DNA of 47,182 bases from NCBI RefSeq assembly GCF_001854545.1, contig NZ_MLQN01000019.1, forward strand, positions 1 to 47,182, in the 5' to 3' direction. This DNA is from Helicobacter sp. CLO-3 (GTDB lineage Bacteria > Campylobacterota > Campylobacteria > Campylobacterales > Helicobacteraceae). The translations under genes and the position numbers were made by a program. The notes below the pieces were generated by a model. That model was not told the DNA's origin. It ran no database searches and was given only the letters and a program-made list of their open reading frames with translations. Below, piece after piece: positions 2,465-38,358 of the stretch; the first letter of the stretch is position 1, and every line of letters begins with the position of its first letter.

Positions 2465-3784
2465 ATGATTTGGGATGAAGTGCTTCAGCATATCAAAAAA
2501 GAAGTATCGCCTCAAGAATTTGATAAATATATTTCTTTGATGAAATACGATGAAAACGCCTCCAAAAGCAACCTTGCCGTATTTATCGTCCCAAACCCTT
2601 ACATAAAAACATGGATAGAAACCAGCTACGCCGAAAGCATCGCGCATATCTTTGAAATCATCAATAAAACCAAAACCGAGGTAAAAATCGAAGTCGCCAA
2701 AGAAAAACAAGGCAATAAAAGCCAAAAAGCCAAAAACCAGCGCATACAAGAACAGCATTTCCTAAACTCGCAACAAACCTTTGATAACTTCGTAGTAGGA
2801 AGCAGCAACGAGCACGCCTTCACCGTCGCCGAAAGCGCCGCCAAGCGCCAAGCCACCGCGTTTAACCCGCTGCTGATATACGGGCACACCGGACTTGGCA
2901 AAACGCACCTTTTATACGCGATAGGCAACTTTGCAATGGAACATCGCAAAAAAGTGATATACATAACCGCCGAAGAGTTTATGAATGAATACCACAAACA
3001 CCTAAAACAGCGCACTATGGATGCTTTTAGAGATGTGTATCGCAATTGTGATTATCTGCTTATTGATGATGTGCAGTTTCTAGGCGGGAAGAGCAACTTG
3101 CAAGAGGAGTTTTTCAACACTTTTGAGGCGCTGTATAAAAGCAAAAAACAAATCGTCATGACTTCTGATAAACTACCAAAGCAAATCCAAGGACTAGAGG
3201 AGCGGATAAGGTCGAGGTTTGAAGGCGGGATGATGATGGAAATCCAGCCCCCAGAGATAGAGACAAAGGTGCGCATCATCGAGCAAAAATGCCGCGACAA
3301 CCAAATAAATATGGATAAAGAAACCATAAACTTCCTAGCAGAAAACATAAATGAAAACATCCGCCAGATTGAGAGCGTAATACTCAAGCTAAACTTCCAG
3401 CACTCCATAACAAACCAGCCCATAAGCATATCTATGGCAAAAAATGTCCTAAAAGAAATCCAAAAAGAAGCCAATGAAGAAATCGGGCTAGAAAAAATCA
3501 TAAACGCCGTCGCTAAAGAATGCAATGTAAAACCAAGCGAAATCATCTCCAAATCGCGCACCTCGCGCATCGTGCAAGCAAGGCATCTAGTCATCTATCT
3601 CACAAGAACACTCGCTTCATCGATAGATTCTATGGGGATGCTCGCACAAAAGCTAAATATGAAAGACCACAGCGCGATTTCAAAGGCATTCACCCAAATC
3701 AGCAAAAAGATAGAAAGCGATGAGAATCTAAAACGACTCTCAAAAGAGCTAAAAAACAAAATACAAAACGAAAAAAGCCTATAA
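2465..3784 (+). CDS. dnaA: Chromosomal replication initiator protein DnaA
   Basis: AAA+ Walker A GHTGLGKTHLL, Walker B LLIDDVQFL, C-terminal DnaA-box-binding domain (IVQARHLVIYLTRTL). Strong SD AAGGAG before ATG at 2465. Confidence 0.95.
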   Translation: MIWDEVLQHIKKEVSPQEFDKYISLMKYDENASKSNLAVFIVPNPYIKTWIETSYAESIAHIFEIINKTKTEVKIEVAKEKQGNKSQKAKNQRIQEQHFLNSQQTFDNFVVGSSNEHAFTVAESAAKRQATAFNPLLIYGHTGLGKTHLLYAIGNFAMEHRKKVIYITAEEFMNEYHKHLKQRTMDAFRDVYRNCDYLLIDDVQFLGGKSNLQEEFFNTFEALYKSKKQIVMTSDKLPKQIQGLEERIRSRFEGGMMMEIQPPEIETKVRIIEQKCRDNQINMDKETINFLAENINENIRQIESVILKLNFQHSITNQPISISMAKNVLKEIQKEANEEIGLEKIINAVAKECNVKPSEIISKSRTSRIVQARHLVIYLTRTLASSIDSMGMLAQKLNMKDHSAISKAFTQISKKIESDENLKRLSKELKNKIQNEKSL

Positions 3785-3803
3785 TCTGCTATAATACGCG
3801 CGG

Positions 3804-3925
3804 TGAAATGTCGTGAAAAGTCAAAGACAAAAATATCACTTAGCAAATCTCGCAAAATAGGGCGCTAGGATATGTTTTTCACTTTTTCACGAAGACTACT
3901 AATACTTCTAATTTCATAATAAAAA
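3804..3925 (+). promoter_or_regulatory. Second DnaA-box cluster plus AT-rich tract between dnaA and dnaN: candidate oriC2 / DNA-unwinding region
   Basis: Inverted boxes GTGAAAT (3804-3810) and CGTGAAAAG (3812-3820). Direct TTTTTCAC at 3875-3882 and TTTTTCACG at 3883-3891. AT-rich run taatacttctaatttcataataaaaa follows at 3899-3925. Confidence 0.5.
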
Positions 3926-3934
3926 GGAGCAGCG

Positions 3935-5035
3935 ATGAAAATCACGCTAAACAAGACAAACTTCGAAATGATCCTAAACAACTTCCAATCATTTCTCGAC
4001 AAAAAAGACTCATCACAAATCACATCCCATATCTACCTAGAAACTATGGGTGATAAGCTACTTATGAAAGCGACAGATTATGAGATCTCTATCCAATCAA
4101 AGATTGATATCTTGCAAAACGCAGAGGATGGCATCGCTACGATAGAGGGCAAAAAAATACTTCCCATCATCAAACAACTAAAAGATGGCGAAGTCACACT
4201 AGAAACAAAAGACAGCCAAATACTTGTAAAACAAGGAAAGGCGAAGTTTAAGCTTTCTACATTTAACGCAGCAGAATTCAACAACGCCACAAAATTCCCA
4301 GAAATCAGCGAAAATGACACAAAGATAAATCTAGATTCTATCGATTTCATCAAATCAATCGAGAAAGTGGCAGTGGCAGCGGATTCTAGCGCGCACAAAA
4401 TAGATAATCATCGCATCGAGCTCACAGGGACACTTATCGATGTGAAAGATTATTATTGCAACTTTGTAGGCACAGATACTAGAAGACTAGCGATAATCCG
4501 CCAAAACACCCAATCTATCGGCACGCAACTTTCTATCATCATCCCCAAACGCGCGATTTTAGAGATAAAAAAGCTCTTTTCTGATGATTTTGAGATATTT
4601 TTCTCACAGACGATGCTTTTTGTGCGCTCGCAAAATTACGCGTTTTCTACCAAGCTCATAAATGGCAAATATCCAGACTATGAGAAAATCATCCCAAAAG
4701 ATTTCAAAATGCAGCTAAAACTGCCAAAAAGAGACATCGAAGAAGCGATAAACCTCATCAAATCATTATCAGTAAATGTCAAAATCACGCTAGATTCTAA
4801 TGGCTTGCTTTTTGAAGCGATGAGCTCTGAAGAGCTAGAATCTGCTAGCACGCAAATCGAGCTTCCACTAGAGATACCAGAGCCTATCACGCTTGGGATG
4901 AATGCGCAATATATCTTAGATTTCTTGCGATATATCAATGTGGCAGAGTTTGAGATTTTGATAAATGAAGCGAATATGCCTTTTATGCTTAGAGATGAAA
5001 ATTACTCTACTATCATTATGCCAGTGCTTTGCTAG
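3935..5035 (+). CDS. dnaN: DNA polymerase III beta sliding clamp
   Basis: 366 aa, three-domain beta clamp architecture, position immediately after dnaA, strong SD AAAGGAG before the ATG. Confidence 0.9.
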   Translation: MKITLNKTNFEMILNNFQSFLDKKDSSQITSHIYLETMGDKLLMKATDYEISIQSKIDILQNAEDGIATIEGKKILPIIKQLKDGEVTLETKDSQILVKQGKAKFKLSTFNAAEFNNATKFPEISENDTKINLDSIDFIKSIEKVAVAADSSAHKIDNHRIELTGTLIDVKDYYCNFVGTDTRRLAIIRQNTQSIGTQLSIIIPKRAILEIKKLFSDDFEIFFSQTMLFVRSQNYAFSTKLINGKYPDYEKIIPKDFKMQLKLPKRDIEEAINLIKSLSVNVKITLDSNGLLFEAMSSEELESASTQIELPLEIPEPITLGMNAQYILDFLRYINVAEFEILINEANMPFMLRDENYSTIIMPVLC

Positions 5036-5087
5036 GATCTAAAAGCTAGAATCTAGATTCTAGTAAGATTCTGCGCCACAAAGCTAA

Positions 5088-7460
<2,373 letters not shown>

Positions 7461-7929: not shown

Positions 7930-8305
7930 ATTCTAGCTTTTATATTGCATCATCTTGAACCAGCATTCGAAATTCATCCAAAAACATCGCTTTAAACGCC
8001 AAAAATACTAGAATCTAACCCGCCAAACACCCCAAAACTCATCAAATAGCAAATCGTTGAAATAAACGCCATTCAAGCGCGTTTAACGCTACAAAACTTT
8101 TTGAGCTAATTAAACATAATCTGTGCGGTTATCAGCGATAATTAGCAAAAGTGCTATAAAACTTTTGAAATGCTTGAAATGCCTTGAAACTTCTTAAATC
8201 CCATAAAATCATAGCTAGAATGCAGAATCTAGATTCTAGGCTCTAGCATCCTTAGCACTAAAGATTTTTTATAGCTTCCTAGTTTTTCTATCTAGAATCT
8301 AGATT

Positions 8306-9067
8306 CTACTTCACATCTTTTAGCACAAGCTCCACCGGGCAATGATCGCTGCCATGTATTTCTGGGTGGATTCCAGCGCTTTGGAGTTTGGATTCTAGCG
8401 CGCGCGAGCAGAGAAAATAATCAATCCGCCACCCCGTGTTATTCGCCCTCGCCTTTCCCATATAGCTCCACCAAGTATAAGCGCCTTCTTTGTCCGGGTA
8501 AAAATGCCTAAAAGTATCGATAAACCCAGAATCCAAAAGCGCGCTCATCTTCTCGCGCTCCTCATCTGTAAAACCTGCGTTGCGGCGATTTGTTTTTGGA
8601 TTTTTGAGATCGATTTCTTTATGCGCGACATTGAGATCGCCACACACGATGACACCTTTATGTTTTTCTAGATTTTTCAAAAACGCACGAAAATCATCCT
8701 CCCACTCCATGCGATATTCCAAGCGTTCCAGCTCGCGCTTGCTATTTGGCGTATAAACATTAACAAGATAAAAGTCATTATATTCTGCGGTGATGATGCG
8801 CCCTTCTTTGTCATGATGCGTGATCCCCATGTCATAGGCGACATTTAAAGGCGCTTTTTTGCTAAAAATCGCCACGCCAGAATAGCCCTTTTTTTCCGCA
8901 CTATTCCAGTATTCCTCATAGTTTGGGAAGTCAAAAGTTGCTTGTTCGCGTAGCATTTTAGATTCTTGTATGCAAAACACATCCGCATCAACAGCGTTAA
9001 AAAACTCCATAAACCCCTTATTCATGCATGCGCGCAATCCATTGACATTCCAAGAAATAAGCTTCAT
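8306..9067 (-). CDS. xthA: Exodeoxyribonuclease III (AP endonuclease)
   Basis: MKLISWNVNGLRA N-terminus, EEP-family catalytic motifs (CIQESK, GDLNVAHKEIDL, SDHCPV). 253 aa. Confidence 0.9.
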   Translation of the reverse strand: MKLISWNVNGLRACMNKGFMEFFNAVDADVFCIQESKMLREQATFDFPNYEEYWNSAEKKGYSGVAIFSKKAPLNVAYDMGITHHDKEGRIITAEYNDFYLVNVYTPNSKRELERLEYRMEWEDDFRAFLKNLEKHKGVIVCGDLNVAHKEIDLKNPKTNRRNAGFTDEEREKMSALLDSGFIDTFRHFYPDKEGAYTWWSYMGKARANNTGWRIDYFLCSRALESKLQSAGIHPEIHGSDHCPVELVLKDVK

Positions 9068-13568: not shown

Positions 13569-13644
13569 GGCTCGATAGCTCAGTCGGTAGAGCAGCAGAC
13601 TGAAAATCTGCGTGTCGGCAGTTCGATTCTGCCTCGAGCCACCA
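13569..13644 (+). tRNA. tRNA-Phe (anticodon GAA)
   Basis: 76-nt cloverleaf read manually. Acceptor stem GGCTCGA/TCGAGCC, D-arm GCTC-AGTCGGT-AGAGC, anticodon stem GCAGA/TCTGC with loop CTGAAAA (anticodon GAA), T-arm GGCAG-TTCGATT-CTGCC, encoded 3' CCA. Confidence 0.9.
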
Positions 13645-15852: not shown

Positions 15853-18219
15853 CTACGCCGTAAAAATATGCGTCAAAATCGCCGGATATTTTTTCATGCG
15901 CTTAAATATGAGCTTTCGCACGATGTTTCGCACTTCTGCTTCGATTTGCTTTTTGTCGTTGAAAAGCTCTTTGCGCGCTGATCGCACCGCCATTTCTAGC
16001 GTGCCTATTATCTCATCTTTGACTTCTTTTACCTCTTCGCTACTCACCACGCCTATCATTTCCACTTCTAGCGAGCGGATTTTTTGCTCGGCTTTGTTGA
16101 TAAACGCCACGATACTCACAAGCCCACATTCTGCGAGATCTTGGCGGTCTTGCACGGTGGCATTATCGATTTGTTTATTCACTTGATTATCGATGAAAAC
16201 CTTGCCGCTTTTGACATTGCCGCATTTTCGCATGAAGCTTGGATTTACCTCGATTTGATCGCCATCTTCCATAAGCAATATATTTTTCTCCGGCACGCCA
16301 CATTTTACCGCGGTGTCTTTGTGCTTTGAGACATGGTTATACTCGCCATGCACTGGGAGGAAAAATTTGGGCTTGGTGAGGCGTAGCATCAGCTTTTGCT
16401 CTTCTTGCGCGGCATGCCCGCTTACATGTATCTCGCTGAAATCCTGATATGCCACGCTAGCGCCCGCTTTCATGAGGAAATTTAGCACCGCAGAGACAGA
16501 GCCTTCATTGCCCGGGATCGCTTTGGCAGAGAGGATGACTAGGTCAGTGGATTTGATTTTGACATGTCGATGCTCATCTGTCGCCATGCGATAAAGCGCG
16601 CTCATCGTCTCGCCTTGTGAGCCGGTGGTGACTATCAGCACTTCATGATCTGGGTATTTTTCTATCTCATGCGCTTCGATGAAAATATTGCTCGGAAGCT
16701 CGATATAGCCAAGTTCTCGCGCGATGTCGAGGTTTTTTTCCATAGAGCGCCCTATCACTGCGACTTTGCGCCCATATTTTAGCCCATAGCTGATAGCCTG
16801 ATACACGCGGTGGATATTTGAGCTAAAGGTGCTCATTATCACGCGCCCGGTGGCGTTTTTAAATAGAGAGTCAAAAGTAGGTCCTACGACGGCTTCGCTT
16901 TGCGTGCAGCCACTTTTATGCGAGTTGGTAGAATCGCTTAGCAATAGCATCACGCCCTGCTCGCCATAATGCGCCAAGCGGTGCAAATCTGTAGGAAGGT
17001 TGTCGATAGGCGTGTGGTCGATTTTGAAATCGCCGGTGTGGATGATAAGCCCCGCTTCTGTTTGTATCGCAAGCGCGCTAGAATCTATGATAGAGTGTGT
17101 GATATGTATCCACTCTATTTCAAACTCGCCGATTTTGATAGGCTGGCGCTTTTGCACCACGCGAAAGCATGAGCGGAATTTTTTGAGCCCGTGCTCATCA
17201 AATTTATTGCCTATCATGCCAAGTGCGAGCGGCGTGCCATAAAGGGGGAATTGAAACTTTTTGAAAAGATAGGGCACAGCGCCGATGTGGTCTTCATGCG
17301 CGTGCGTGATGACGATGCCAGCGACTTTGTCTTTGATGCTTTCAAGGTATTGAAAATCAGGGATCAAAATATCCACGCCATGCATATTTTCTTCCGGGAA
17401 GCTCATCCCCACATCAATGATAATCGCGGAGTTTTCCGTCTCCATCACCATCATATTTCCGCCGATCTCGCCAAGCCCGCCAAGTGGCGTGATTTTCACT
17501 TTTGCTTTGGTGTCTAGGTTTAGCTTGTTGTGCGGGTTTAGGCTGTTTTTTTGGATTCTGGTGTTGGTCTCTACGCCCCGTTTCAAATCTTTGTGAAATG
17601 CGAGATTGCCGCGCTCATTGATCCCTTGCACTTCGCGCGCACCTTCTGGCGTGTCGTATGTAGGCGCGCTAAATCCTTGTCTAGGAAACATGCGGCGCTG
17701 TTTTGGCGCGCCAGAATCTTGCGCGTTTTGTGGTACGTTTGGATTTTGCATATTTGGATTTTGGGCGCTTGGATTCTGCGTCATATTTTGTGGCGCGTGG
17801 TTTTGCTGTGGTGCGCGGGTGTTTGGTGAATGCGCGTTGTGCGTGTTGTTCGCGTTTTTGTAGCCATTTCGCTGGTTGTGGTTGCGTTGCGCGTGCTGTG
17901 AGTTTTGCGGATTTTGCTGATACCCGCCGCCAAATTCCCTGTTAGATTCTCGGTTGCCTTCTTTATTAGATTCTCGATTGCCCTCTCGATTGTCTCTGCC
18001 AAAATCGCGCCTAGAATCCTTGCTAGAATCTCTATTTGCATCTTTGCCAAAATCTCTAGATTCTCGGTTGGCTTCTTGATTGTCTCTGCCTCGATTATCT
18101 CTGCCTCCATTATCTCTACCTTGATTATCTCTGCTTCCGCCAAATCGATTGCCAAAAAATCGCTTTTTCTCTGGCGCGCCTTGGTTTTCTGCTGTGTTGT
18201 TTGGTGTGTTTTCGTTCAT
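15853..18219 (-). CDS. rnj: Ribonuclease J with a ~230-aa repetitive R/D/N/G/Q-rich N-terminal extension
   Basis: Metallo-beta-lactamase HxHxDH motif (ITHAHEDHIGAVPYL), beta-CASP and C-terminal domains. The first ~230 aa are low-complexity (GNRESNKEGNRESNREF; RDNQGRDNGGRDNRGRDN). SD AAGGAAAG before the ATG. Confidence 0.9.
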   Translation of the reverse strand: MNENTPNNTAENQGAPEKKRFFGNRFGGSRDNQGRDNGGRDNRGRDNQEANRESRDFGKDANRDSSKDSRRDFGRDNREGNRESNKEGNRESNREFGGGYQQNPQNSQHAQRNHNQRNGYKNANNTHNAHSPNTRAPQQNHAPQNMTQNPSAQNPNMQNPNVPQNAQDSGAPKQRRMFPRQGFSAPTYDTPEGAREVQGINERGNLAFHKDLKRGVETNTRIQKNSLNPHNKLNLDTKAKVKITPLGGLGEIGGNMMVMETENSAIIIDVGMSFPEENMHGVDILIPDFQYLESIKDKVAGIVITHAHEDHIGAVPYLFKKFQFPLYGTPLALGMIGNKFDEHGLKKFRSCFRVVQKRQPIKIGEFEIEWIHITHSIIDSSALAIQTEAGLIIHTGDFKIDHTPIDNLPTDLHRLAHYGEQGVMLLLSDSTNSHKSGCTQSEAVVGPTFDSLFKNATGRVIMSTFSSNIHRVYQAISYGLKYGRKVAVIGRSMEKNLDIARELGYIELPSNIFIEAHEIEKYPDHEVLIVTTGSQGETMSALYRMATDEHRHVKIKSTDLVILSAKAIPGNEGSVSAVLNFLMKAGASVAYQDFSEIHVSGHAAQEEQKLMLRLTKPKFFLPVHGEYNHVSKHKDTAVKCGVPEKNILLMEDGDQIEVNPSFMRKCGNVKSGKVFIDNQVNKQIDNATVQDRQDLAECGLVSIVAFINKAEQKIRSLEVEMIGVVSSEEVKEVKDEIIGTLEMAVRSARKELFNDKKQIEAEVRNIVRKLIFKRMKKYPAILTHIFTA

Positions 18220-19421
18220 TTTCTTTCCTTTATTTGGTTGTGTATTTGGTGATACTTTTGTGTGCTAAGCTCATGCGGGCGCGTATTTGGCGCGATATCT
18301 AGCCGCGCAAAAATGGATTCTAGCGTCGCTTTGTCATAGCGGCTTGCAAGATTGTTTAGCAGTTTTTTGCGTGGTGCGGAAAATGCCGCTTTTAGCATAT
18401 TTTCAAAGCTATTTGAAATCTGCCAAGCGTTTGTTTCGCGCGTTTTGCTAGTTTTGCTCGCCTCGCTAACCTCACTTGCTTTTTTGCCTTGCCTTGCCAG
18501 CTTCGCTTTGCTTATTAGCTCCGCTCCGCTTTGTCGCTCCACTTCGCCTTTTTCGCTAGTTTCGCTATTTTTGCCAGCCTTGCTTTTTTGGCTTTTTTGC
18601 TCCATTTGGCTAGTCGCGTTTATCTCGCCTTTTTGCGTAAAATCTTGCGCGCTATTTATGCTAGCTTGGCTAACTCGCATGCTTTGCATCGCACAATCGC
18701 ACGGCGCTTTTGAAGCGTATTTTTTATGAGAAAATACCGCAGAAGTCACCTTTGGCATCGGCTCAAACGCCTCTTTTGGCACTTCAAAAAGCAGCCTCGT
18801 CTCGCCCACACTTTGTGCCAGCACGCTAAGCGCGCAAAACTCGCTCTGCCCCTCATCCGCGCAAAACTTCAGCGCGACCTCTTTTTGCGTCATCACCACA
18901 AAGCCCTCGCATAGCGGATCTTTTAGCAGATTTATCACGATGCGCGTGGCTATGTAATATGGCAGATTTGACACGAGGATATAGGGTTCATCCGCCAGCC
19001 ATGCATACACTTCTTGCATGCTTTGAGATTCTCGCTCCGCTTTGTTTGGCGCGCCAGAATCCGAATGTTTAGATTCCACTTTAGATTCTAGGCTTTTAGA
19101 ATCCATATTTTTGGATTCTGCGCCAGCGCTTGCATTTAGCGCGTTTAGCGGGATAGATAGGACATCTTTTTGCACGAGGCTAAAAGTGTGCGGAAAAATA
19201 CGCGATGAAAACCGCCGCAACACAAAAGAACACAGATCGGCATCAATCTCATAGGTGGTAAGGCTTGAGATCTGCAATAGCCGCTCTGACAAATCACCCA
19301 AACCAACGCCGATTTCTACTAGCTTGCGATGCTGCAGCAGCTCGGAGCTCACTTGGAGGATTTTATCCAGATACAAAGGATCTTTTAAAAAATTCTGCCC
19401 GAATTTCTTTTTGGCTTGCAA
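18216..19421 (-). CDS. rsmA: 16S rRNA (adenine1518/1519-N6)-dimethyltransferase RsmA/KsgA carrying two low-complexity insertions
   Basis: KKFGQNFL N-terminus, SAM motif VEIGVGLGDLSE, NLPYYIATRIV, FxVPxxAFxPxPKV. It is 401 aa versus the ~270 aa typical, because of insertions at aa ~95-140 and ~240-335. A 4-nt overlap with the rnj start implies an operon. A TTG start is inferred. Confidence 0.85.
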   Translation of the reverse strand: MQAKKKFGQNFLKDPLYLDKILQVSSELLQHRKLVEIGVGLGDLSERLLQISSLTTYEIDADLCSFVLRRFSSRIFPHTFSLVQKDVLSIPLNALNASAGAESKNMDSKSLESKVESKHSDSGAPNKAERESQSMQEVYAWLADEPYILVSNLPYYIATRIVINLLKDPLCEGFVVMTQKEVALKFCADEGQSEFCALSVLAQSVGETRLLFEVPKEAFEPMPKVTSAVFSHKKYASKAPCDCAMQSMRVSQASINSAQDFTQKGEINATSQMEQKSQKSKAGKNSETSEKGEVERQSGAELISKAKLARQGKKASEVSEASKTSKTRETNAWQISNSFENMLKAAFSAPRKKLLNNLASRYDKATLESIFARLDIAPNTRPHELSTQKYHQIHNQIKERK

Positions 19422-19697: not shown

Positions 19698-20525
19698 ATG
19701 AATCATCTAGCAAAGCGCATCATCCCATGCCTTGATATCAAAAATGGCAAGGTCGTCAAGGGGGTGAATTTTGTCGGTTTGCAAGATGTGGGCGATCCGC
19801 TAGAGCTAGCAAAGCTCTATAATGATGCGGGCGCGGATGAGCTCGTGATCCTAGACATCACGGCGACTTTTGAGCATCGGCAGATCATCGCTGATCTCAT
19901 CCGAAATATCGCCAAAGAGGTGTATATACCGCTGACTATCGGCGGGGGCATACGCACGCTTGATGATATGTATCTGCTGCTTGATGCGGGCGCGGATAAA
20001 ATCAGCCTCAATAGCACCGCGATAAAAAATCCAGAGCTCATCGAGCAGGCGGCGAAACGATTTGGCTCGCAGTGCGTGGTGATAGCTATCGATGTGAGGA
20101 GTGAAAATTGGGAGGGGGCTTTGCAAGGTGGGCGAAATGGAGGCGCGCAAGCCAACTCTACAAAAATCCATCACACCAAAAAAGAAGTCTATATAAAAGG
20201 TGGCAGGGAAAACACAGGTATAGAGATGTGCGAATGGGCGAAGATCTGCGAGGATAAAGGCGCGGGCGAGTTTCTGCTTACGAGCATGGATACTGATGGC
20301 ACGAAAAATGGCTATGATATCGATGCGCTGACGCAGTTGCGAGAATCTGTGAGTCTGCCTATCATCGCTTCTGGTGGTGCAGGGAAAATGGAGCACATTG
20401 CGGAGGTTTTTGAGATGGATGTGGCGGATGCTGCGCTTGCGGCTAGCATTTTTCATAATAATGAAATCACGATAGCGGATTTGAAACGCTATCTAGATTC
20501 TCGTGGCATCCCTGTGAGAATCTAG
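19698..20525 (+). CDS. hisF: Imidazole glycerol phosphate synthase cyclase subunit HisF
   Basis: [17 protein letters not shown]-terminus, (beta/alpha)8 HisF motifs, [16 protein letters not shown] ~20-aa Gly/Asn-rich insertion ([20 protein letters not shown]) is present. SD AAAGGAG. Confidence 0.9.
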
Positions 20526-22291: not shown

Positions 22292-22683
22292 GAATGCTTT
22301 GGGCGATGCGCTTGAAATATTTGCGGTGGCTGAAAATGTCTAAGTTTGGTTAGATGTGTTTAAGGCGGCTAAAAAATATTTGTGGTGCATTTGGATTTTG
22401 GTGCGATATTCTGATGTAATGTTTCACATGAAACTATGATTAGATTTGTGTCAGATTTTATGCTAGATTCTGCGCTTGATTTGGTATCGGATTCTGGTGT
22501 TTGGATTTTGTGACAGTAAATATGAAGCCAGAATCTAGCGCAGGATTTATACCAGCGGATTTATGCCAAATGGTAGAATCTAGATTCTGCCATCAAGCGC
22601 ACAAAAGCTAGAATCCAAAAGCCAAACAAAGTCACAAACAAAACCATAAACAAACCACAAACCAAATCACAAAAGGAGAGAAA

Positions 22684-22793: not shown

Positions 22794-24080
22794 ATGCTAG
22801 TGCATATTTGCTGTTCTGTGGATAGTCATTATTTTTTGAGCGAATTGCAGAAGGAGTTTCCGGGTGAGAAATTTACCGGATTTTTCTACAATCCAAACAT
22901 ACATCCAAAAAGCGAGCATGACCTGCGGCTTAGTGATGTGCGTAGAAGCTGTGAGATGCTAGGCATTAGCTTGATTGAAGGCAAATACGATGATACGAGC
23001 TGGTGTGAAGGCGTGCGCGGATTGGAAAATGAGCCGGAGAAGGGCGATAGATGCGTGCGATGCTTTGATATCCGCCTAGAAGAAAGCGCAAAAATCGCGC
23101 TAGAGCTTGGCGAGCAGAGATTTACCACGACTCTGCTCTCAAGCCCCATGAAAGAGCAAGAGGTGCTTTATCAGCAAGGCGATCAAATAGCGCAGATGCA
23201 TGGACTGGATTTTATCAAGATAAATGTCCGCAGTAATGGCGGCGTGCAGCGTCAAAATGAGCTAGCCAAAAAGGATAATCTCTATCGCCAAAATTATTGC
23301 GGGTGTAAATACGCGCTTACCAAGCAGCGCGAGAAGCAAGAGCGATTTAGCCTAGAATCCATAAGCGAGATAGGGCGGCGCGCACTGCCCGGGAGCATCG
23401 AGGAGCGACAAGAGACATTTGATAAGCGCAATCATTTGGAGCGAAATGGCAGGGACTATATACTGACGCAGAGAAAAATGCGGATATATCGTCTGCTATG
23501 GGGTAAAATCTCTTATAATGATGCTGTGATACCTAGCTATATTTTGGCGCATTCTGATAGCAGGAGTGCTAGGGTCGGCGCTATCGTCTGGATAAAAACT
23601 AGCGTAAAAATACCAAACAATGCACGAGCAAATCTGCTAAATCCGCCAGCATATTTGCCAACAAATTCGCCCACATATTCGTCCGCACATTCTCCCGCAC
23701 ATTTGCAAGGTTTTAGAGATACAAATGCGCTAGATTCTGGACTAGAATCCAAAAAAGTGGAAAAATCAGAAAAAGTAGAAAAATCAGATTCTGATGCTTT
23801 GCATATACATCTAGGCTTTGGCAAAAAGGATGATGCGCTGTTTATTTGTATGAAAGATTTCAACAAGCTTGCTTGCAGTGCCTATAAAAGAGCGCTAGAT
23901 ATGCTGTATCATCCGCCACGCTATGAAGTGGAGCTAGATATCCGCGCTTGTATTTGTGGCAGCGAGACGACAAATCCTATCATCATCATAGATAAGCCAA
24001 CCGAGCAGAATCTAAAGGTGGAGATAAAATCGCTTTTTCAAGAAGAGAAGGTATTTTGCATCACCGAAGCAGCGCGCTAG
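22794..24080 (+). CDS. queH: Epoxyqueuosine reductase QueH (DUF208) with a ~200-aa C-terminal extension
   Basis: N-terminal MLVHICCSVDS and CxxC ... CGCKYA cysteine motifs characteristic of DUF208/QueH. The C-terminal half carries an ESKKVEKSEKVEKSDSD low-complexity segment and a further Cys-containing region. Confidence 0.8.
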   Translation: MLVHICCSVDSHYFLSELQKEFPGEKFTGFFYNPNIHPKSEHDLRLSDVRRSCEMLGISLIEGKYDDTSWCEGVRGLENEPEKGDRCVRCFDIRLEESAKIALELGEQRFTTTLLSSPMKEQEVLYQQGDQIAQMHGLDFIKINVRSNGGVQRQNELAKKDNLYRQNYCGCKYALTKQREKQERFSLESISEIGRRALPGSIEERQETFDKRNHLERNGRDYILTQRKMRIYRLLWGKISYNDAVIPSYILAHSDSRSARVGAIVWIKTSVKIPNNARANLLNPPAYLPTNSPTYSSAHSPAHLQGFRDTNALDSGLESKKVEKSEKVEKSDSDALHIHLGFGKKDDALFICMKDFNKLACSAYKRALDMLYHPPRYEVELDIRACICGSETTNPIIIIDKPTEQNLKVEIKSLFQEEKVFCITEAAR

Positions 24081-29190: not shown

Positions 29191-32019
29191 ATGCAAAAAT
29201 ATCTTGAGATGCTGCATTCTGCTAAAAGCAAGCAAGAATTGCGCGCGGTGCTGCTTGGCATCATCGGTGCTATCGTGGCAGAATCGCGCGAAGTTTTGGC
29301 TAGAGAAAATGCGGGCAAGGCGAGTAAAGCGGGCAAGGCTATCGGCGGGGGCGTGGAAGGTGGTGCAGAATCTAAAAATGCCAGCACAGATTCTCGCAAT
29401 GCAGCATCTGGTGCAGAATCTAAAAATATAGATTCTAGCGATACTCATAACAAGCCACAAAGCATATTCTATCAAGCAAGTTTTTTGAGAGAGATATCCC
29501 AGTACCACGATATCTTTATACAAATTTTTAGCATTTTTCGAGACAAACTTTTTGGGATTCTTGATAGTGGCGATATTTTGGATTCTGCGTTTTTGTATTT
29601 GGCATTTATCGCGCCGGCGGATTTGGAGCTGGATGAGCGATTTTTGCCATTTATCCGCCTTGCAGATAAAATGCTAGCGCGGGATTCTAGCGACGCCAGC
29701 GTTGCAAGTCAAGCAACTATGACAAGCCCAGAAGAATGGGTGATGCTAACCGAGCTTGGTGCTATCGCCAGAGTGCTATACGCGCCGATGCATCAAAGCA
29801 GAAGCATTTTTGCTAGCATGCAAAAAAGCGCACCATGTGAAACAAGCGCGACAATCAAAGACAAAATAGCAGAATCTAGCTCGCCAAAATCTGACTTGCC
29901 AGAATCTATAGATTCTGCAAATCCTGCACCAAACAGCGCGCTAGAATCTAGCTCACTAGAATCTAGCCTGCAAAACACAAGCGCCAGCGCATTAGATTCT
30001 AGCATATCAGAATCCACACCATCCATATTGTCCGCACCATCCGCGCCCTGCTCTACGCGCGCCACTTCACACACGACATCCGCGCCACGCGACGCGCTAG
30101 ATACCAACCCGCTAGATAGCCTCATGTTTTTTACTACGAACATGCTTTTGACTAGCATAGATAGCCTGCCAGCGAGTCAATGCATCAAATTTATCATGGA
30201 AGCGTTTGAGGTTTTCAAACTCGGCTTTTCTTTGCTAAAGCCAGCACTTCATGGTGCGTTTGCGCGCGCGAGTAGTCCTATCATGCGGCGCAATATTTGC
30301 AATTGGCAGCTGCATATTTTTTGGAATATCCCGCATTTGTTTAACAATCGCGAGTGGCTTTGCCTCTATGATCTATGGAAAAGCGAGCTATACAGAATGA
30401 TAGCGCGCGCGGAATCTCTTGGTGTCGTAGAATCTGGCGCGCCAGATTTTGCACTACTATCCGCGCTTGATGAGGTGCTGTATATGCAGTTTTTCATCTA
30501 TCATATGTGTGGCAATAGCTTTAGCACGCAAGAGCAATGGCGCGCGTTTAATGATGAAGTTTCTAGAAAAACCACGCCGCTATATAAGGCATTTAGTGAT
30601 AAATTTCTGCCAAAACTAGATTCTGGACTAGAATCTAGTTTAGAATCCACCGCTAGCCAGCAACCCAAGCAACCCCAACAGCCCACCAAACAAAAGCAAA
30701 AGCGCATCGTCATAGGATTTTTGCGCGATCGCATAGTAGAAAACTCCCCTTTCAAAATCGAATACAGCCTTTTCAAAAACCTCCTTTCACATGAGGAATT
30801 TGCCAAGCGTTATGAGATCAAAATCTACTGCATGAGCCTCATAGAAAAATCAGAAAATAACCCTATCCCCCTCGCTAAAATCGCTAGCCTAAACATAGAA
30901 ACCATAGACATCGGACTAGGATTTAACAAAGCAGGATTCTACAACTCGCATTTGCAAAAAGCCTTGGCACTCCGCGAAATCATCCAAAAAGATGGCGTGC
31001 AAGTGCTTATCAGCCCAAATAATGGCTATGGGATCAGTGATTTTCTGCTGGCTAGCAGGAGCGCGCGCGTGCAGGTGTTTTACACGCATGGCAATTTTGT
31101 GTATGATATTTGTGGGATTGATGCGCGTATGACGCATATTTGCGATAATCAGCGCGAGATTATCCACGAGGGCTTTAGCTTTTATGGGATTCCGGTGAAA
31201 ATGGATGATGAGTTTTACACACCCACACTTCCGCCTGCGCTCATAGAATCCGAGCGCGCCAAATATCCGCTGGATAAAAAAATCATGGGCGTGATAGGGC
31301 GGCTTACCAAAATAGATTCTGCTCCTTATCTGCGCGCGATTTGTGAGATTCTAGAAAAGCGCGAGGATTGGATATATCTTGCATGCGGGCTTGGCAATGA
31401 GCAAGAAATCCGCCGCAAAATAGATGCTATCGCGCCAGAGCTCTCCGGCAGGTTTTTCTTCGCTGGTTATGTAGATAGCGGGGTGTATGGGCATATTATT
31501 GACTTTTGGGCGGATAGTTTTCCTATGGAGCAGGGCGAGAGTCGCATCGAGTATGTGGCGAAATCGCGTGGGCTGGCGCTGCGCTACTATCGCACTCCAG
31601 AATCTAGCCTGCTAGCGCAAGTGGCAAATCAGCTAGAATCCACGCGCGGCGTGATAGAGGAGATCTGCGCGGATTCTCATGCGCTTGGCGAGATTTTGGG
31701 CGAGGGTGGTGCCGAGTGCGCTGGGGTTGAGCGCGCTGGAGTTGGCGCAAATAGATTATTTGAGGATTTTGCTAGCTACAAAAGTGTGGCGATAGAGTTT
31801 TTTAAGAATCTAAGCGCGTTTGATGAAGCGGAGTATGTGGCTAAAGCATTGGCCATCACGCAAGATTTTGGGGGAAATAGTGGCGTCGATATGGATGTCA
31901 ATATCAACACAAAGCACTTATTGCAGATCCAAAGCGCGCTGCATCGCATGAGTGGCGAGATAAAATCGCGCCTTGGCGAGCGATATTTTCTAGACTTTTT
32001 GCATAGATTTGGCGTTTGA
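29191..32019 (+). CDS. Large (942 aa) protein: N-terminal helical plus Ser-rich low-complexity region fused to a C-terminal GT41 (OGT/HMW1C-like) glycosyltransferase domain
   Basis: The C-terminal ~440 aa align by eye with GT41 consensus segments. RIVIGFLRDRIVENSP matches LRVGYVSSDFGNHP. VQVLISPNNGYGISDFLLASRSARVQVFYTHGNFVYDICGIDARMTHICD matches [48 protein letters not shown]. The N-terminal ~500 aa are helical and interrupted by AESK/DSS/LESS low-complexity runs. Confidence 0.55.
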   Translation: MQKYLEMLHSAKSKQELRAVLLGIIGAIVAESREVLARENAGKASKAGKAIGGGVEGGAESKNASTDSRNAASGAESKNIDSSDTHNKPQSIFYQASFLREISQYHDIFIQIFSIFRDKLFGILDSGDILDSAFLYLAFIAPADLELDERFLPFIRLADKMLARDSSDASVASQATMTSPEEWVMLTELGAIARVLYAPMHQSRSIFASMQKSAPCETSATIKDKIAESSSPKSDLPESIDSANPAPNSALESSSLESSLQNTSASALDSSISESTPSILSAPSAPCSTRATSHTTSAPRDALDTNPLDSLMFFTTNMLLTSIDSLPASQCIKFIMEAFEVFKLGFSLLKPALHGAFARASSPIMRRNICNWQLHIFWNIPHLFNNREWLCLYDLWKSELYRMIARAESLGVVESGAPDFALLSALDEVLYMQFFIYHMCGNSFSTQEQWRAFNDEVSRKTTPLYKAFSDKFLPKLDSGLESSLESTASQQPKQPQQPTKQKQKRIVIGFLRDRIVENSPFKIEYSLFKNLLSHEEFAKRYEIKIYCMSLIEKSENNPIPLAKIASLNIETIDIGLGFNKAGFYNSHLQKALALREIIQKDGVQVLISPNNGYGISDFLLASRSARVQVFYTHGNFVYDICGIDARMTHICDNQREIIHEGFSFYGIPVKMDDEFYTPTLPPALIESERAKYPLDKKIMGVIGRLTKIDSAPYLRAICEILEKREDWIYLACGLGNEQEIRRKIDAIAPELSGRFFFAGYVDSGVYGHIIDFWADSFPMEQGESRIEYVAKSRGLALRYYRTPESSLLAQVANQLESTRGVIEEICADSHALGEILGEGGAECAGVERAGVGANRLFEDFASYKSVAIEFFKNLSAFDEAEYVAKALAITQDFGGNSGVDMDVNINTKHLLQIQSALHRMSGEIKSRLGERYFLDFLHRFGV

Positions 32020-32132
32020 GATTCCAAACTATGCAAAACCATGCAAAGCACCCAGAATCTAGATTCTGGTAATTTGACAGCTTAAAGCTAGCGCAAAATC
32101 CAGCCAAACCAAAGAAGCAAAAAGGAGCAAAC

Positions 32133-33308: not shown

Positions 33309-34436
33309 ATGACAAAAACAGCACAAACAGCACAAACAGCACAAACAGCACAAATACCAGCAGTGGTAAAATATGTAAAACACCAGCTAGGCGCATATTT
33401 TGTGCGCTTTATGCGTTTTATGCGCTTTGCTTGGCTAAGTGCCTTGCTGTTTGCAAGTGCGGCTAGCGCTTCAGATTTTGTCTATGGGCGCGCGATTATC
33501 GCTAGCGATAAGGTATTTTTCCTCGCAGATCGCGGCGCAAGGTCTGGCAACACGCCACCGCCAAACTACATCATGCCAAATCAAGTATTTGCATTTAGCC
33601 ATTTTGACAGAAGTGGCAGAAACGACAAATCTTCGCTTTGCGGGGACTCTAGCCAAAAAATCGCAGATGATAGCGGTATAGTGCGCTGCATCACCCCAAA
33701 AAGCACCAATATAGTCATAAACCCCGCTTTGCATGTTAACATCATGCGACTAAAAATAAGCGCGCAAGAATCATCACTAGATAAATTGTCACCGGATGAA
33801 TCGTCACCAGCAGAATCTAGTCTAGGCAAATCTAGCCCCGCAAAATCCAGCGCGCGCCAATACAAAGAAATAAGCAAGCGCTATGGCTTTGGGCGCAATG
33901 AGCGGAATGGTATCGTGCAGTGGGGCTGGACGACTTCTGATATACCTGATGATGTGCTGGGATTTCAAGAGGTGGTGCTGGCGCATAGTGATAGCGCGCT
34001 GAAGCTTTATAAAGAGCCTTTGCTAGAATCTGAAATCATCCTGCAAGGCGTGCATGCGAGCTCTAGCGCGATACTGCCGCGCACAGCAGAATCTAAAAGA
34101 GCGCGCGATGATATAGCGAGTGGCAAAAAGATAGTGCCAGATGCTACGACTGCGAATATGGCGCTGCTGGCAATCCCAGAGGTGTTGTTTGAAAGCTATT
34201 TGGGCGATCGTATATTTTTGGTAGGGTATGTGGAGGGTGAAAAAAATAGCGCTTCGCCAAACAAAGCAGAATCCAAATCAAGGCCTCGAGCAGAATCCAA
34301 GCAAACAGAATCCCAAGCGGAATCTAAAAATAAGGCAGAATCCAAAAAAGGCAGATTCTACCAAGCGATAGTGGTGCGCGATGAGTCGGTGTATTTTTGG
34401 GATATTTTGCAGAAAATGAATTACAATCCACGATAA
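33309..34436 (+). CDS. Hypothetical secreted protein with an N-terminal (TAQ)4 repeat and Ser/Glu/Lys-rich low-complexity runs
   Basis: SD AAAAAGG. Hydrophobic signal-like segment FAWLSALLFASAASASD after an extended N-region. A 9-nt repeat x4 at 33321-33356. AESK-type C-terminal repeats. Confidence 0.55.
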   Translation: MTKTAQTAQTAQTAQIPAVVKYVKHQLGAYFVRFMRFMRFAWLSALLFASAASASDFVYGRAIIASDKVFFLADRGARSGNTPPPNYIMPNQVFAFSHFDRSGRNDKSSLCGDSSQKIADDSGIVRCITPKSTNIVINPALHVNIMRLKISAQESSLDKLSPDESSPAESSLGKSSPAKSSARQYKEISKRYGFGRNERNGIVQWGWTTSDIPDDVLGFQEVVLAHSDSALKLYKEPLLESEIILQGVHASSSAILPRTAESKRARDDIASGKKIVPDATTANMALLAIPEVLFESYLGDRIFLVGYVEGEKNSASPNKAESKSRPRAESKQTESQAESKNKAESKKGRFYQAIVVRDESVYFWDILQKMNYNPR

Positions 34437-35980
34437 ATAAGCAAAATAGCTCCAAAAACTTACCAAAAGTAGAAGGCGCTACGCTTGCTTTATCAGATAC
34501 GCCAGCAAATCTTGCAAAAGCTAACCTCACGCTTTTTGACAATCAATACTCTGGAATAAAACAGCGCGCATACATAAGCCATGCGCTAGAGAATCTAGAT
34601 AGCATAAAAGTAGAGTTCAACTTAGATGATGAGAGGATCTATCTAGCAGATTCTAGCGTTTTGCCGCTGCTTCCCATAAGTCAAGAGATAGATTATTATC
34701 TAAGCGCGGAGGATCGTGCCAACCTTGCGACTATCGCGCGCAGCAGAGGCATGCTAAAGATCCCAGCGACGCTAAATATCACGCTAGATTATAGCTTGGG
34801 CGAGCATGTGGCGCTGGAGCCTGAGGTAAAGCTAGTCTCTCTAAGTAGCAAAGGGTCAAAATCTACTAACGCAGCAGCGCAAATCAGGGGATTGGCACCA
34901 AATAATGCAGCACCAAATAATGCAGGATTTATACCACAAAGCACCGATACCCAAACGCACAAAAAACTATACGAGCGCTCATGTATGAGCGAGAATCTAG
35001 TGCGTAAAGGGTTTTTGGAGATTTATTCTATTGATAAAGAAGAGATTGATAAAAACGACATCGCCAAAGATTCTGCAGATTCTACAGGCTCTATAGATTC
35101 TGCGCAAGGCGATTCTGACAAAGCCAAAAACATGCTCTACACACTCTATATCAGCAAAATAGACGCAGCAAATAGCATACTGCTAACAAGGCCTGCAGAA
35201 TCCGCAGCGCAAAACACCCTCAAAAACAAGGAGTTCGCATCCAAAGATTTTATCCAAATTTGCTATGGCTTTGCGAGCGATAAAGATGGGATTAAGTGCA
35301 TGCCTTTTGGCTTCGTGCGCGCGGATGATATCATCTCTTGCAGGGACTATGATAGCAAAAATGCGCCAGATTATGCGCTGGCAAAAGCGGTGCTAAAAGC
35401 CATTAGCGAGCTAGAATCTAAGCCGATAGATTCTACTAGCTTTGCGCTTTATAAAAGCGGCGCAGAAAATAGCGGGCAAGCGCAAACGCAGACACTAATA
35501 GGGCAGATTACCAAAGTAAAAAGCCTAAAAGAAGGCATAGAGCTAGCAAAAAGCTATAAAATGGATGATATATCACTGCTAGAGCAGATACCAAAAGACA
35601 GCACCACGCCAAATGCTAGCAAGGCAAAAGCGCGCCAAACGCCACAAGCGCCTTATGGCAGCGATAGAAGAGTGCGCTACAATCGCGGGAGAGATTATGT
35701 AGAGCCAGAAGCGGAGGCGCATTTCATTTTCCTAAACGAACCAAAAGCGCTAGAAAAGCTAGCCAGCAAATCACAGCTCAAATCCCAGCCACTAGGCGAC
35801 ACGACTTTGCTTTATACAAAGCGTCCTTTTGGTGGCGAAAAAGACATCCGCGCCCTGCTAAAAAAGCCCAAGCAATCAGACTTCACCCAAGAGATTTTGG
35901 CGATATATCATAGAAATATCTATATTTTTAGCGAGGATAGTGTGATATATTTGGATGGGCGCAAGCTGCTTGATAGATGA
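34397..35980 (+). CDS. Hypothetical 527-aa protein (TTG start, 40-nt overlap with the upstream gene)
   Basis: Long ORF with protein-like composition. No signal peptide or known motif seen. The start is uncertain: TTG at 34397, and the first in-frame ATG is far downstream. Could be translationally coupled or a frameshifted continuation. Confidence 0.45.
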   Translation: MGYFAENELQSTINKQNSSKNLPKVEGATLALSDTPANLAKANLTLFDNQYSGIKQRAYISHALENLDSIKVEFNLDDERIYLADSSVLPLLPISQEIDYYLSAEDRANLATIARSRGMLKIPATLNITLDYSLGEHVALEPEVKLVSLSSKGSKSTNAAAQIRGLAPNNAAPNNAGFIPQSTDTQTHKKLYERSCMSENLVRKGFLEIYSIDKEEIDKNDIAKDSADSTGSIDSAQGDSDKAKNMLYTLYISKIDAANSILLTRPAESAAQNTLKNKEFASKDFIQICYGFASDKDGIKCMPFGFVRADDIISCRDYDSKNAPDYALAKAVLKAISELESKPIDSTSFALYKSGAENSGQAQTQTLIGQITKVKSLKEGIELAKSYKMDDISLLEQIPKDSTTPNASKAKARQTPQAPYGSDRRVRYNRGRDYVEPEAEAHFIFLNEPKALEKLASKSQLKSQPLGDTTLLYTKRPFGGEKDIRALLKKPKQSDFTQEILAIYHRNIYIFSEDSVIYLDGRKLLDR

Positions 35981-38208: not shown

Positions 38209-38358
38209 TTTGTGTCCTTTGGCTTTAGTTTGCGGAAGTATAGGAAAAAGCGCGTGGCGGTTGTATAAGTTATTTGGGTAAAAATACAAGTTTTTTGATT
38301 TATGTTAAGCATTGTTTCGTATAATTCGCAGAATCTAAAATTTTGAAGGAGCTTAACA

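Follow-up and report, generated by a model that had tools for sequence, protein, structure and literature searches.

A short DNA word, the octamer AGAATCTA (reverse complement TAGATTCT), is hyperabundant in a 47,182-nucleotide (nt) contig of the intestinal bacterium Helicobacter sp. CLO-3 (the window, in whose numbering all coordinates are given), and its copies are concentrated in low-complexity inserts that interrupt conserved proteins such as KsgA and HisIE. In RNase J, the product of the rnj gene, this word that shapes protein sequence is superimposed on a disordered N-terminal head already known in Helicobacter. We conclude, with a probability of about 0.65, that a DNA-level force that enriches the motif acts together with in-frame changes in length to write lineage-specific inserts into conserved proteins. 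An initial annotation of this DNA had described the long RNase J extension and similar insertions in other proteins, and had read them as an ongoing, motif-driven expansion.

The octamer occurs 113 times in the window, as compared with 1.71 ± 1.17 times in dinucleotide shuffles (∼66-fold over-representation), a density of 2.4 octamers/kb or ∼3 copies per gene. It is found 60 times on the plus strand and 53 times on the minus strand. The absence of strand skew rules out a Chi- or KOPS (FtsK orienting polar sequence)-like role, despite the adjoining dnaA-dnaN-gyrB genes. The core of the motif is AGAATCT, and its usual form in CLO-3 is S-Y-AGAATCTA-R, with about two informative flank positions per side. 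Because flank information ends at ∼±2 nt, the motif is a free-standing short word and not part of a longer element; a longer mobile element (a miniature inverted-repeat transposable element or a repetitive extragenic palindrome) is thereby ruled out. The motif contains GAWTC, a subset of GANTC, but only the 7-mer AGAWTCT is symmetric around W, and the octamer itself is no perfect palindrome. Perfect 14-nt palindromes, AGAATCTAGATTCT, are present five times (5048-5061, 8224-8237, 8294-8307, 22575-22588, and 32054-32067); these palindromic pairs are intergenic and lie mostly just past stop codons.

The motif is conserved outside genes and is specific to a clade of related species. When the window was compared with a sister lineage (a 91-kb scaffold, 92-94% identical), 25 of 33 intergenic motif copies (76%) were intact, versus 41.5% of other intergenic 8-mers. 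In enterohepatic loci, the AGAATCT core ranks as the top or near-top octamer family, and nine such loci contain 1.1-3.6 copies/kb, with flanks that are species-specific in the manner of dialects (C-C/Y…A in CLO-3 and T…T/A in H. cinaedi). Gastric species have few core copies or none: 19.7 kb of H. pylori contain no copy, where ∼2.4 are expected by chance. H. pylori and Helicobacter sp. 13S00482-2 have 0-0.3 core copies/kb, and H. cetorum, H. vulpis, and Campylobacter have almost no octamers. These sequence properties are those that would be expected of a maintained or driven element, either an uptake or recognition sequence or a methylation-linked word like HIP (highly iterated palindrome). 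In the Campylobacter loci that we compared (L019-L024, L031, L033, and L037), the commonest octamers all contain AAATTT, at ∼2/kb. These AAATTT octamers match the RAATTY methylation motif that is tied to DNA discrimination in C. jejuni transformation.

Within genes, the octamer is read in a small number of frames. Twenty-nine copies lie in the frame xxA GAA TCT Axx (x-Glu-Ser-x), 24 are read in reverse as xTA GAT TCT, so that TAGATTCT encodes Leu/Ile/Val-Asp-Ser, and 11 lie in the frame AG AAT CTA (x-Asn-Leu), with just 4 copies in other frames. It had been suggested that the inserts are often literally encoded by GCAGAATCTAAA (AESK) or CTAGATTCTAGC (LDSS). This holds for part of the former, as 4 of its 8 copies encode AESK (1 encodes QNLK and 3 are intergenic), but not for the latter, which occurs once, at 15700, in intergenic DNA.

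The codons used for the encoded dipeptides separate a pressure on DNA from one on protein. Glu-Ser is encoded by GAA-TCT in 43 of 104 cases (41%, versus 12% expected from codon usage, p = 1e-14) and by GAA-TCC in a further 28, and Asp-Ser is encoded by GAT-TCT in 58 of 97 (60%, versus 19% expected, p = 7e-19). TCT accounts for 52% of Ser codons after Glu or Asp and for 16% elsewhere, and an A precedes GAA-TCT in 40 of 43 cases. The same codon-pair excess is present in the sister lineage, H. cinaedi, Ca. H. avicola, and other enterohepatic loci, and the loci that have it contain ∼2 times as many ES/DS dipeptides per coding kb; the excess is absent in the compared loci of H. pylori, H. cetorum, H. 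vulpis, Wolinella, and Campylobacter. Since this bias is at synonymous sites, the peptides follow the DNA word and not the reverse, which places the cause at the DNA level.

The motif is unevenly distributed among coding regions. With an entropy-based mask, its density is 5.9 octamers/kb in intergenic DNA, 3.9 in low-complexity coding DNA, and 1.3 in other coding DNA. Because the mask also flags coiled-coil and transmembrane segments, this contrast is underestimated, and copies were recounted in inserts delimited by alignment to solved structures and to orthologues from syntenic loci (18 segments, 2,940 nt). The orthologous loci, obtained by a profile search of genome contigs, were mostly from Campylobacterota and included at least about 12 from Helicobacter; neither the CLO-3 genome itself nor H. 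fennelliae was among the loci listed. The delimited inserts contain 7.8 octamers/kb and 18.7 AGAATC hexamers/kb, as compared with 9.8 hexamers/kb in intergenic DNA.

Length differences between lineages are found in the same segments. An identical 788-amino acid (aa) RNase J is encoded on seven contigs, and the protein is also carried by assembly GCA_001677375.1. We compared six of the contigs with the window; they come from different samples, namely an isolate genome and five assemblies of metagenomes or read sets. In DNA they are 99.4-99.98% identical to it across as much as 22 kb, no aligned block contains more than one short gap, and rnj and all of the insert segments have the same length throughout. 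The identity of RNase J and the near-identity of the DNA across samples thus exclude an assembly artefact, the alternative that the initial annotation had left standing, as well as instability of the phase-variation type. More distant comparisons did reveal indels. A 95.5%-identical relative (L087) has a 779-aa RNase J and a shorter KsgA, and the 10 indels that distinguish its ksgA and rnj genes are all multiples of 3 and all lie inside low-complexity segments. In the sister lineage, the lengths are 734 aa for RNase J, 289 aa for HisF, 992 aa for a protein resembling glycosyltransferase family 41 (GT41-like), and 232 or 254 aa for HisIE, depending on the start. The claim of ongoing expansion therefore applies to in-frame indels between 92-95%-identical lineages and not to the six CLO-3 contigs.

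Indels relative to the sister lineage were taken from a fast progressive alignment of ∼35 kb, so that their boundaries within repeats are approximate. In this alignment, a length divisible by 3 is seen for 44 of 51 coding indels but only 9 of 83 non-coding ones, and low-complexity segments contain 26 of the 44 in-frame indels (15% expected, p = 3e-11). The DNA gained or lost is itself rich in the motif: it has 19.5 hexamers/kb, or 14 observed copies, versus 2.4 expected from coding DNA and 4.6 expected from low-complexity DNA (P = 0.003). This excess favors some contribution of the motif to the expansions. Several indels are exactly one motif-bearing unit (GCAGAATCTAAG, GAATCTAAC, CAGATTCTA, and GGCAATCGAGAATCTAATAAAGAA, with GCAGAATCTAAG and GGCAATCGAGAATCTAATAAAGAA distinguishing CLO-3 from the 95.5%-identical relative). 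Indel junctions have a modest excess of microhomology, with a mean of 2.06 nt versus 0.84 nt (P = 0.001), and in two of them the microhomologous sequence is the motif.

Constraint was estimated as the ratio of nonsynonymous to synonymous substitution rates (dN/dS, Nei-Gojobori) against the two relatives. The ratio is 0.09-0.19 for the RNase J head and 0.02-0.03 for its core; it is 0.54-0.77 for the two KsgA inserts taken together and 0.04-0.07 for the KsgA core. Based on these values, the RNase J head is under purifying selection and the KsgA inserts are close to neutral passengers. The single category in which the initial annotation had placed these segments therefore comprises two kinds of object.

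The 5′ third of rnj (17530-18219, RNase J aa 1-230) encodes the extension that had been described as R/D/N/G/Q-rich, a description borne out by its composition (53% R/D/N/G/Q and 9% hydrophobic residues for aa 1-230; 53-56% and 7-9% for the head, as compared with 23% and 34% for the core). The gene and the parts of its head are as follows.

15853-18219, minus strand: rnj, RNase J of 788 aa (open reading frame (ORF), Pfam, and structure match)
18139-18219, minus strand: RNase J aa 1-27, an N-terminal segment with the basic/aromatic sequence KKRFFGNRFG (sequences read by eye)
17929-18138, minus strand: RNase J aa 28-97, an R/N/G/D/S/E-rich repeat block (composition and repeat search)
18078-18134, minus strand: a 15-nt tandem array of 3.8 copies with plus-strand unit GATTATCTCTGCCTC (Tandem Repeats Finder (TRF), 85% matches, score 86)
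17964-18092, minus strand: a 129-nt (43-aa) block that is absent in the sister lineage, whose RNase J has 734 aa (alignment)
17695-17928, minus strand: RNase J aa 98-175, an N/Q/P/A/H-rich block with QNP-type units (composition and alignment)
17509-17694, minus strand: RNase J aa 176-237, a pre-core segment (…ERGNLAFHKDLKRGVETN…) conserved across Helicobacter (alignment)

The identity of the protein is clear from sequence: it is a member of the RNase J family of beta-CASP metallo-beta-lactamase ribonucleases, as its Pfam domains, all from aa 251 on, are Lactamase_B (PF00753), beta-CASP (PF22505, 3.5e-50), RMMBL (PF07521), and RNase_J_C (PF17770). The solved H. pylori enzymes match it with E = 2.8e-284 (8cgl_A) and 1.2e-269 (7pcr_A), in alignments that start at aa 132 and 238, respectively; the crystallised core construct 7PCR begins opposite aa 238. 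The HxHxDH zinc-binding motif (H306-A-H-E-D-H311) is invariant across the alignment of RNase J homologues. The ATG of rnj (18219-18217) overlaps the ksgA stop codon as ATGA and has AGGA 8-11 nt upstream.

The stretch ahead of the core comprises 237-242 aa, of which about 175-190 residues are low-complexity and predicted to be disordered. AlphaFold2, run on a 14-sequence alignment, gave a predicted local distance difference test (pLDDT) score of 26-36 for aa 1-205, which were modeled as coil without secondary structure; the core itself was only moderately confident because the alignment is shallow. Apart from the short KKRFF-like N-terminal motif, which can likewise be recognized in H. fennelliae, H. 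mustelae, H. cetorum, and other homologues, no conservation was found ahead of ∼aa 191 in the homologue alignment. The segment at aa 176-237 is not low-complexity and contains a predicted helix (aa 206-226), and aa 191-247 align with the conserved pre-core residues 95-150 of H. pylori. The proposal that the extension is built from 12-15-nt repeats is correct for roughly aa 28-97, which are 69% R/D/N/G/Q and contain four (G)RDNx units ahead of others of the NRES, RDF, and KDS types; the rest is weakly periodic. The (G)RDNx units are encoded by the GATTATCTCTGCCTC array, which is distinct from the AGAATCTA motif, and the three octamers in this block are translated as R-E-S-N/R. A repeat search also found a 34-nt unit in three copies at spacings of 24 and 90 nt in the extension, and the 129-nt block is weakly self-similar at a 24-nt offset. 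Outside the 15-nt array, TRF gave weak 7-9-nt periodicities, and the composition is still biased. In aa 98-175, three related lineages differ by 5-, 6-, and 10-aa indels.

An N-terminal extension of RNase J in H. pylori was known, as the initial annotation had noted. It has 132 residues (Redko et al. 2013, PMC3592473) and is unresolved by cryo-electron microscopy, predicted to be disordered, and of unclear function (Tejada-Arranz et al. 2023, PMC10700544). All Helicobacter RNase J proteins are reported to carry an extension, the sequences of which are scarcely alike, and in H. pylori the head is required for full activity, with a contribution to foci proposed (PMC3592473, PMC10700544). The CLO-3 head resembles it in its place before the metallo-beta-lactamase core and in its predicted disorder (PDB 7PCR and 8CGL) but differs in length, with 237 pre-core residues versus 132-136; the extra length is the lineage-specific R/D/N/E/S repeat block and the Q/N/P block. 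Among the 120 best RNase J homologues, pre-core length is 104-233 aa (median 132, and at most 192 outside the CLO-3 clade), and that of CLO-3, 242 aa by this measure, is the longest of those compared. The RNase J proteins of its two close relatives differ from it in length by 9 and 54 residues. Thus, a disordered RNase J head as such is already known, and what is new is its lineage-specific expansion and the size of this expansion. From its distribution and dN/dS, the head is an ancestral, genus-wide disordered region that is constrained and probably functional, and it is not to be lumped with the KsgA inserts.

The remaining inserts that were placed on the map are the following.

18993-19142, minus strand: KsgA insert 1 (aa 94-143), a loop rich in AESK/LESK/VESK with five motif hexamers (alignment)
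18432-18716, minus strand: KsgA insert 2 (aa 236-330), in the linker between the methyltransferase and C-terminal domains, with no motif copy (alignment)
20103-20183, plus strand: HisF loop insert (aa 136-162), a turn of ∼5 residues in solved HisF (structure alignment)
23640-23798, plus strand: QueH variable region (aa 283-335), within a Helicobacter-specific C-terminal domain (alignment)
29314-29490, plus strand: GT41-like insert 1 (aa 42-100), with two AESK units (alignment and AlphaFold2)
29818-30090, plus strand: GT41-like insert 3 (aa 210-300), rich in LES/AES/LDS/IDS, with six octamers (alignment and AlphaFold2)
30622-30705, plus strand: GT41-like insert 5 (aa 478-505), the linker between the helical and GT-B domains (alignment and AlphaFold2)
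33747-33875, plus strand: low-complexity segment 1 of a 375-aa protein, ESS/DES/AESS units in a 15-nt repeat of 2.9 copies (TRF)
34239-34349, plus strand: low-complexity segment 2 of the 375-aa protein, AESK five times from GCAGAATCCAA/GCGGAATCTAA units
35027-35131, plus strand: D/S/K-rich segment of a 527-aa protein, a 9-nt repeat of 3.8 copies of AGATTCTAC (TRF)
38500-38646, plus strand: spacer of 49 residues after the twin-arginine signal of an aldo/keto reductase, ADSGK/LDSSK units (TRF and Pfam)
42680-42871, plus strand: C-terminal low-complexity tail of a DEAD-box helicase, with one motif octamer
45355-45591, plus strand: HisIE interdomain linker (aa 143-221), ∼80 residues (structure alignment and TRF)

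All of the insertions listed in the initial annotation were found at or near the positions given there, and they and the two in KsgA take the place of what are short loops or linkers in orthologues or solved structures. Alignments to orthologues and structures, together with AlphaFold2 pLDDT values below 50 at insert sites, agree with their description as lineage-specific insertions in loops, linkers, and tails. They share a repeat chemistry in part, as the motif is present in most of them and exceeds its intergenic density; the GRDN array of RNase J is of a different kind.

KsgA/RsmA (18216-19421, minus strand) has 401 aa, or 378 from an alternative start, as compared with 244-296 aa in most orthologues (one has 344 aa by a rough ORF call). 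The excess in CLO-3 is its two inserts, and insert 1 is missing from most orthologues. The HisF insert, which had been counted among the ESK/DSS-type repeats, does not belong there: it has a different composition and no motif copy. At the same place the sister lineage has an additional 45 nt that include one AGAATCTA. The variable region of QueH contains an 18-nt repeat of 2.1 copies that encodes KVEKSE/KVEKSD. QueH itself (22794-24080) has a C-terminal domain of ∼240 aa past the Pfam QueH domain (aa 1-176) that is conserved in Helicobacter and Wolinella and for which no Pfam or PDB sequence match was found.

Orthologues of the GT41-like protein (942 aa, 29191-32019) are 653-1033 aa long; the CLO-3 protein is interrupted by five or more clade-specific inserts, of which insert 5 is longer by 25-29 aa in two sister lineages. 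In its AlphaFold2 model (mean pLDDT 67), values are below 50 at aa 46-89, 166-176, 213-304, 476-502, and 837-853, and near 90 in the helices that flank these stretches. Four of the stretches match inserts, and the fifth is a C-terminal region that varies among orthologues. The protein had no Pfam match even at E ≤ 1 and none in a PDB sequence search; 1 of 43 homologues has a precomputed match to PF13844 (Glyco_transf_41), and NCBI names others "glycosyltransferase (family 4)." When the model was compared with the PDB using Foldseek, the top 23 matches were the GT41 enzymes SPY, human OGT, and Xanthomonas OGT (E = 5e-9 to 2e-6, TM 0.3-0.5). The GT41 label is thus supported by the predicted model at the level of fold, though not by Pfam.

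The aldo/keto reductase spacer contains seven motif hexamers, and 48% of its DNA is in motif units. Public annotations of this gene (38359-39426) give 355 or 255 aa; the long form has the twin-arginine signal RRNFIKAG and the spacer. The tail of the DEAD-box helicase differs from that of the sister lineage by small in-frame indels. The HisIE linker, which has ∼11 residues in solved HisIE, contains seven motif hexamers and a 15-nt repeat of 3.7 copies, and it is 33 aa shorter in the sister lineage. HisIE (44929-45897) has been annotated with 322, 307, 269, or 235 aa; in the long form, translation of the first 40 residues depends on TTG as the start codon, and part of their coding DNA, a 105-nt block, is missing from the sister lineage. 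The ORFs of the 375-aa (33309-34436) and 527-aa (34397-35980) proteins overlap and correspond to one 885-aa ORF in the sister lineage. They are split by a 1-nt indel near 34398 in a TTTTTGGG run (G3 in CLO-3 and G4 in the sister lineage). A frameshift in a pseudogene, an error of sequencing, or a slippage site could explain the split. No entry in the protein collection was identical to the 375-aa product.

Taken together, we propose that a genome-wide process at the DNA level may enrich and maintain the AGAATCT-core word in CLO-3 and its enterohepatic relatives. In coding DNA, the motif would persist nearly exclusively in three frames, those in which neither stop codons nor bulky residues arise, and because the resulting hydrophilic dipeptides would be harmless in unstructured parts of proteins, it would pile up in weakly constrained segments (disordered tails, surface loops, linkers, and post-signal spacers) to a density like that of intergenic DNA or higher. 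These segments would be resized by in-frame gain or loss of 9-129-nt units, probably as short imperfect repeats slip or undergo unequal exchange, and motif copies would supply part of the microhomology. The expected outcome is a set of ES/DS/K/A-rich low-complexity inserts in conserved enzymes that would be translated and mostly nearly neutral. RNase J would be a special case, in which the spacer between the KKRFF motif and the pre-core helix may have grown to ∼150 residues in the CLO-3 lineage.

Several observations weigh against this proposal. Motif units of 10 nt account for only ∼19% of insert nucleotides, and the motif is missing from 4 of the 18 inserts (the 285-nt KsgA insert 2, the HisF loop, the putative HisIE N terminus, and GT41-like insert 2); the motif therefore cannot be their sole builder. 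The clearest tandem array of RNase J (15 nt, 3.8 copies) is not the motif, and non-motif arrays lead to the same conclusion. The lack of length variation in six CLO-3 assemblies means that the indel rate is not high. When each indel was examined for tandem duplication by its best in-frame self-match within ±200 nt, only some gave a significant result and many had a weak signature or none, and we do not claim simple tandem duplication for every insert. The indels are unpolarised by an outgroup, so that "expansion" could in part be deletion in the relatives. All of the statistics come from one 47-kb window and ∼44 kb of one sister lineage. Finally, the inserts are probably translated, as frame conservation and dN/dS argue, a point that again comes from DNA sequence. 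The claim that the expansion is motif-driven is overstated, as is the description of the segments as motif-built; the motif-enriched indels suggest that the motif contributes to some extent.

These points bear most directly on the explanation that low-constraint segments expand by ordinary slippage and that the motif merely accumulates in them, with no part in resizing. It would account for the four motif-free inserts and the 81% of insert DNA that is non-motif, for the 15-nt array of RNase J and the 18-nt array of QueH that are unrelated to the motif, and for a density in low-complexity coding DNA that is similar to the intergenic one, as if it tracked a lack of constraint. We nevertheless consider it unlikely, since the hexamer density of indel DNA exceeds the low-complexity background (14 versus 4.6), several indels are one motif-bearing unit, two junctions have motif microhomology, and the delimited inserts are above intergenic density (18.7 versus 9.8 hexamers/kb). 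It appears less likely still that selection acts on the peptides, so that ES/DS/K-rich segments are functional spacers or disordered regions (in condensates or as tethers) and the motif is a by-product. The low dN/dS of the RNase J head and the need for the H. pylori head for full activity (PMC3592473, PMC10700544) fit such a role, as does the position of the aldo/keto reductase spacer after a twin-arginine signal, where a flexible linker could help; but GAA-TCT and GAT-TCT are over-used 3-4 times with a flanking A in 40 of 43, the same word is commonest in non-coding DNA, the KsgA inserts are nearly neutral, and the affected proteins are mostly cytoplasmic housekeeping enzymes.

Errors of assembly, mis-called starts, or unrecognised gene splits might also create apparent inserts, and public starts do disagree for the aldo/keto reductase, HisIE, and KsgA (401 or 378 aa), with the N-terminal 40 aa of HisIE needing TTG. 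As a general explanation, this is very improbable: RNase J is identical on seven contigs, six of which are 99.4-99.98% identical, and 44 of 51 coding indels between lineages keep the frame. In addition, the KsgA, HisF, QueH, HisIE linker, and GT41-like inserts lie between conserved domains in one continuous frame, and RNase J has an N-terminal motif conserved across species and a start with a ribosome-binding site that overlaps the ksgA stop. The proposal of a motif-enriching force at the DNA level combined with in-frame resizing is therefore the one that we favor.

By analogy, its closest precedent would be the coevolution of uptake sequences and proteomes, followed by HIP1. Uptake signal sequences (USS) of Haemophilus and Actinobacillus and DNA uptake sequences (DUS) of Neisseria coevolve with the proteome; they have preferred frames, the tripeptides that they encode are approximately doubled, and poorly conserved positions are favored (Findlay & Redfield 2009, PMC2817400). 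The CLO-3 word resembles them in its hyperabundance in both orientations, preferred frames, raised level of encoded peptides, poorly conserved sites, and DNA-level cause, and in a core that is common to related species with dialects but not to distant ones. It differs in its taxon, in being denser (2.4 octamers/kb), and in being concentrated in length-changing low-complexity insertions and not merely in substituted positions; the likeness rests on sequence statistics. H. pylori is reported to lack an uptake sequence. We found no literature description of the octamer or of an uptake sequence in enterohepatic Helicobacter, although coverage was limited and this is weak evidence of novelty.

HIP1 (GCGATCGC) is a cyanobacterial octamer that is 15-300-fold over-represented and whose function is debated (Elhai 2015, PMC4390886; Xu et al. 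2018, PMC5861425). It can exceed one copy per gene, lies inside as well as outside coding DNA, and is better conserved than neutral evolution would predict (PMC4390886, PMC5861425). The CLO-3 octamer is similar in its ∼66-fold over-representation, its ∼3 copies per gene, and the conservation of its intergenic copies (76% versus 41.5%), but it is not a perfect palindrome as HIP1 is. We know of no description of low-complexity protein inserts as a feature of HIP1.

Two other systems share features with the inserts. Housekeeping proteins of Plasmodium falciparum have low-complexity insertions that are attributed to pressure at the nucleic acid level, and there, as in CLO-3, loops of conserved enzymes are interrupted by lineage-specific, rapidly evolving, length-polymorphic segments of DNA-biased composition (see also PMC7534687, PMC3140889). 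The Plasmodium insertions reflect global AT-richness and Asn/Lys runs, whereas those of CLO-3 reflect one oligonucleotide and short imperfect repeats at 38-50% GC. Phase-variable contingency loci of Helicobacter and Campylobacter likewise have short intragenic repeats that change copy number by slippage; in CLO-3, however, the units are multiples of 3, the frame is kept, and there is no on/off switching. A contingency locus was ruled out on the basis of the 44 of 51 in-frame coding indels and the absence of hypervariability in six assemblies.

A broader reading joins these comparisons, and we offer it tentatively, as somewhat improbable in its full form. The AGAATCT-core word (S-Y-AGAATCTA-R in CLO-3 and T-AGAATCT-T/A in H. 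cinaedi) might be an undescribed driven element of enterohepatic Helicobacter, either an uptake or self-recognition sequence (possibly acting through GAWTC methylation, as in Campylobacter with RAATTY) or a HIP1-like word, that actively remodels the proteome, approximately doubling Glu-Ser and Asp-Ser and seeding length-variable disordered inserts in essential enzymes, including RNase J, the degradosome nuclease.

Other features of the window were also noted. The dnaA, dnaN, and gyrB genes are at its left end (2465-7460), and the contig therefore probably adjoins the replication origin. The sole RNA gene found in the window is tRNA-Phe (GAA), at 13569-13644. At 35980-36322, between the 885-aa gene and a chemoreceptor gene, the sister lineage has ∼2.3 kb of extra DNA (L092 2285-4637) that includes an ORF of 197 aa and a gene for a major facilitator superfamily transporter. 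A further insertion in this lineage, of 275 nt, lies at ∼38233, where a PAS-domain ORF (37705-38289) has its upstream end.

These findings provide a clean bacterial example in which a hyperabundant oligonucleotide writes low-complexity peptide into conserved enzymes, with evidence from synonymous sites that parts DNA pressure from peptide selection. The RNase J head constitutes a natural length series (734, 779, and 788 aa in close lineages and 642-757 aa elsewhere) that could be used to test its role, for example in RNA binding or in foci or condensates. Should the motif turn out to serve uptake or recognition, it would raise the question of whether Helicobacter recognizes its own DNA, for which H. 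pylori is regarded as lacking a signal, and it would bear on the transformation of poorly tractable enterohepatic species.

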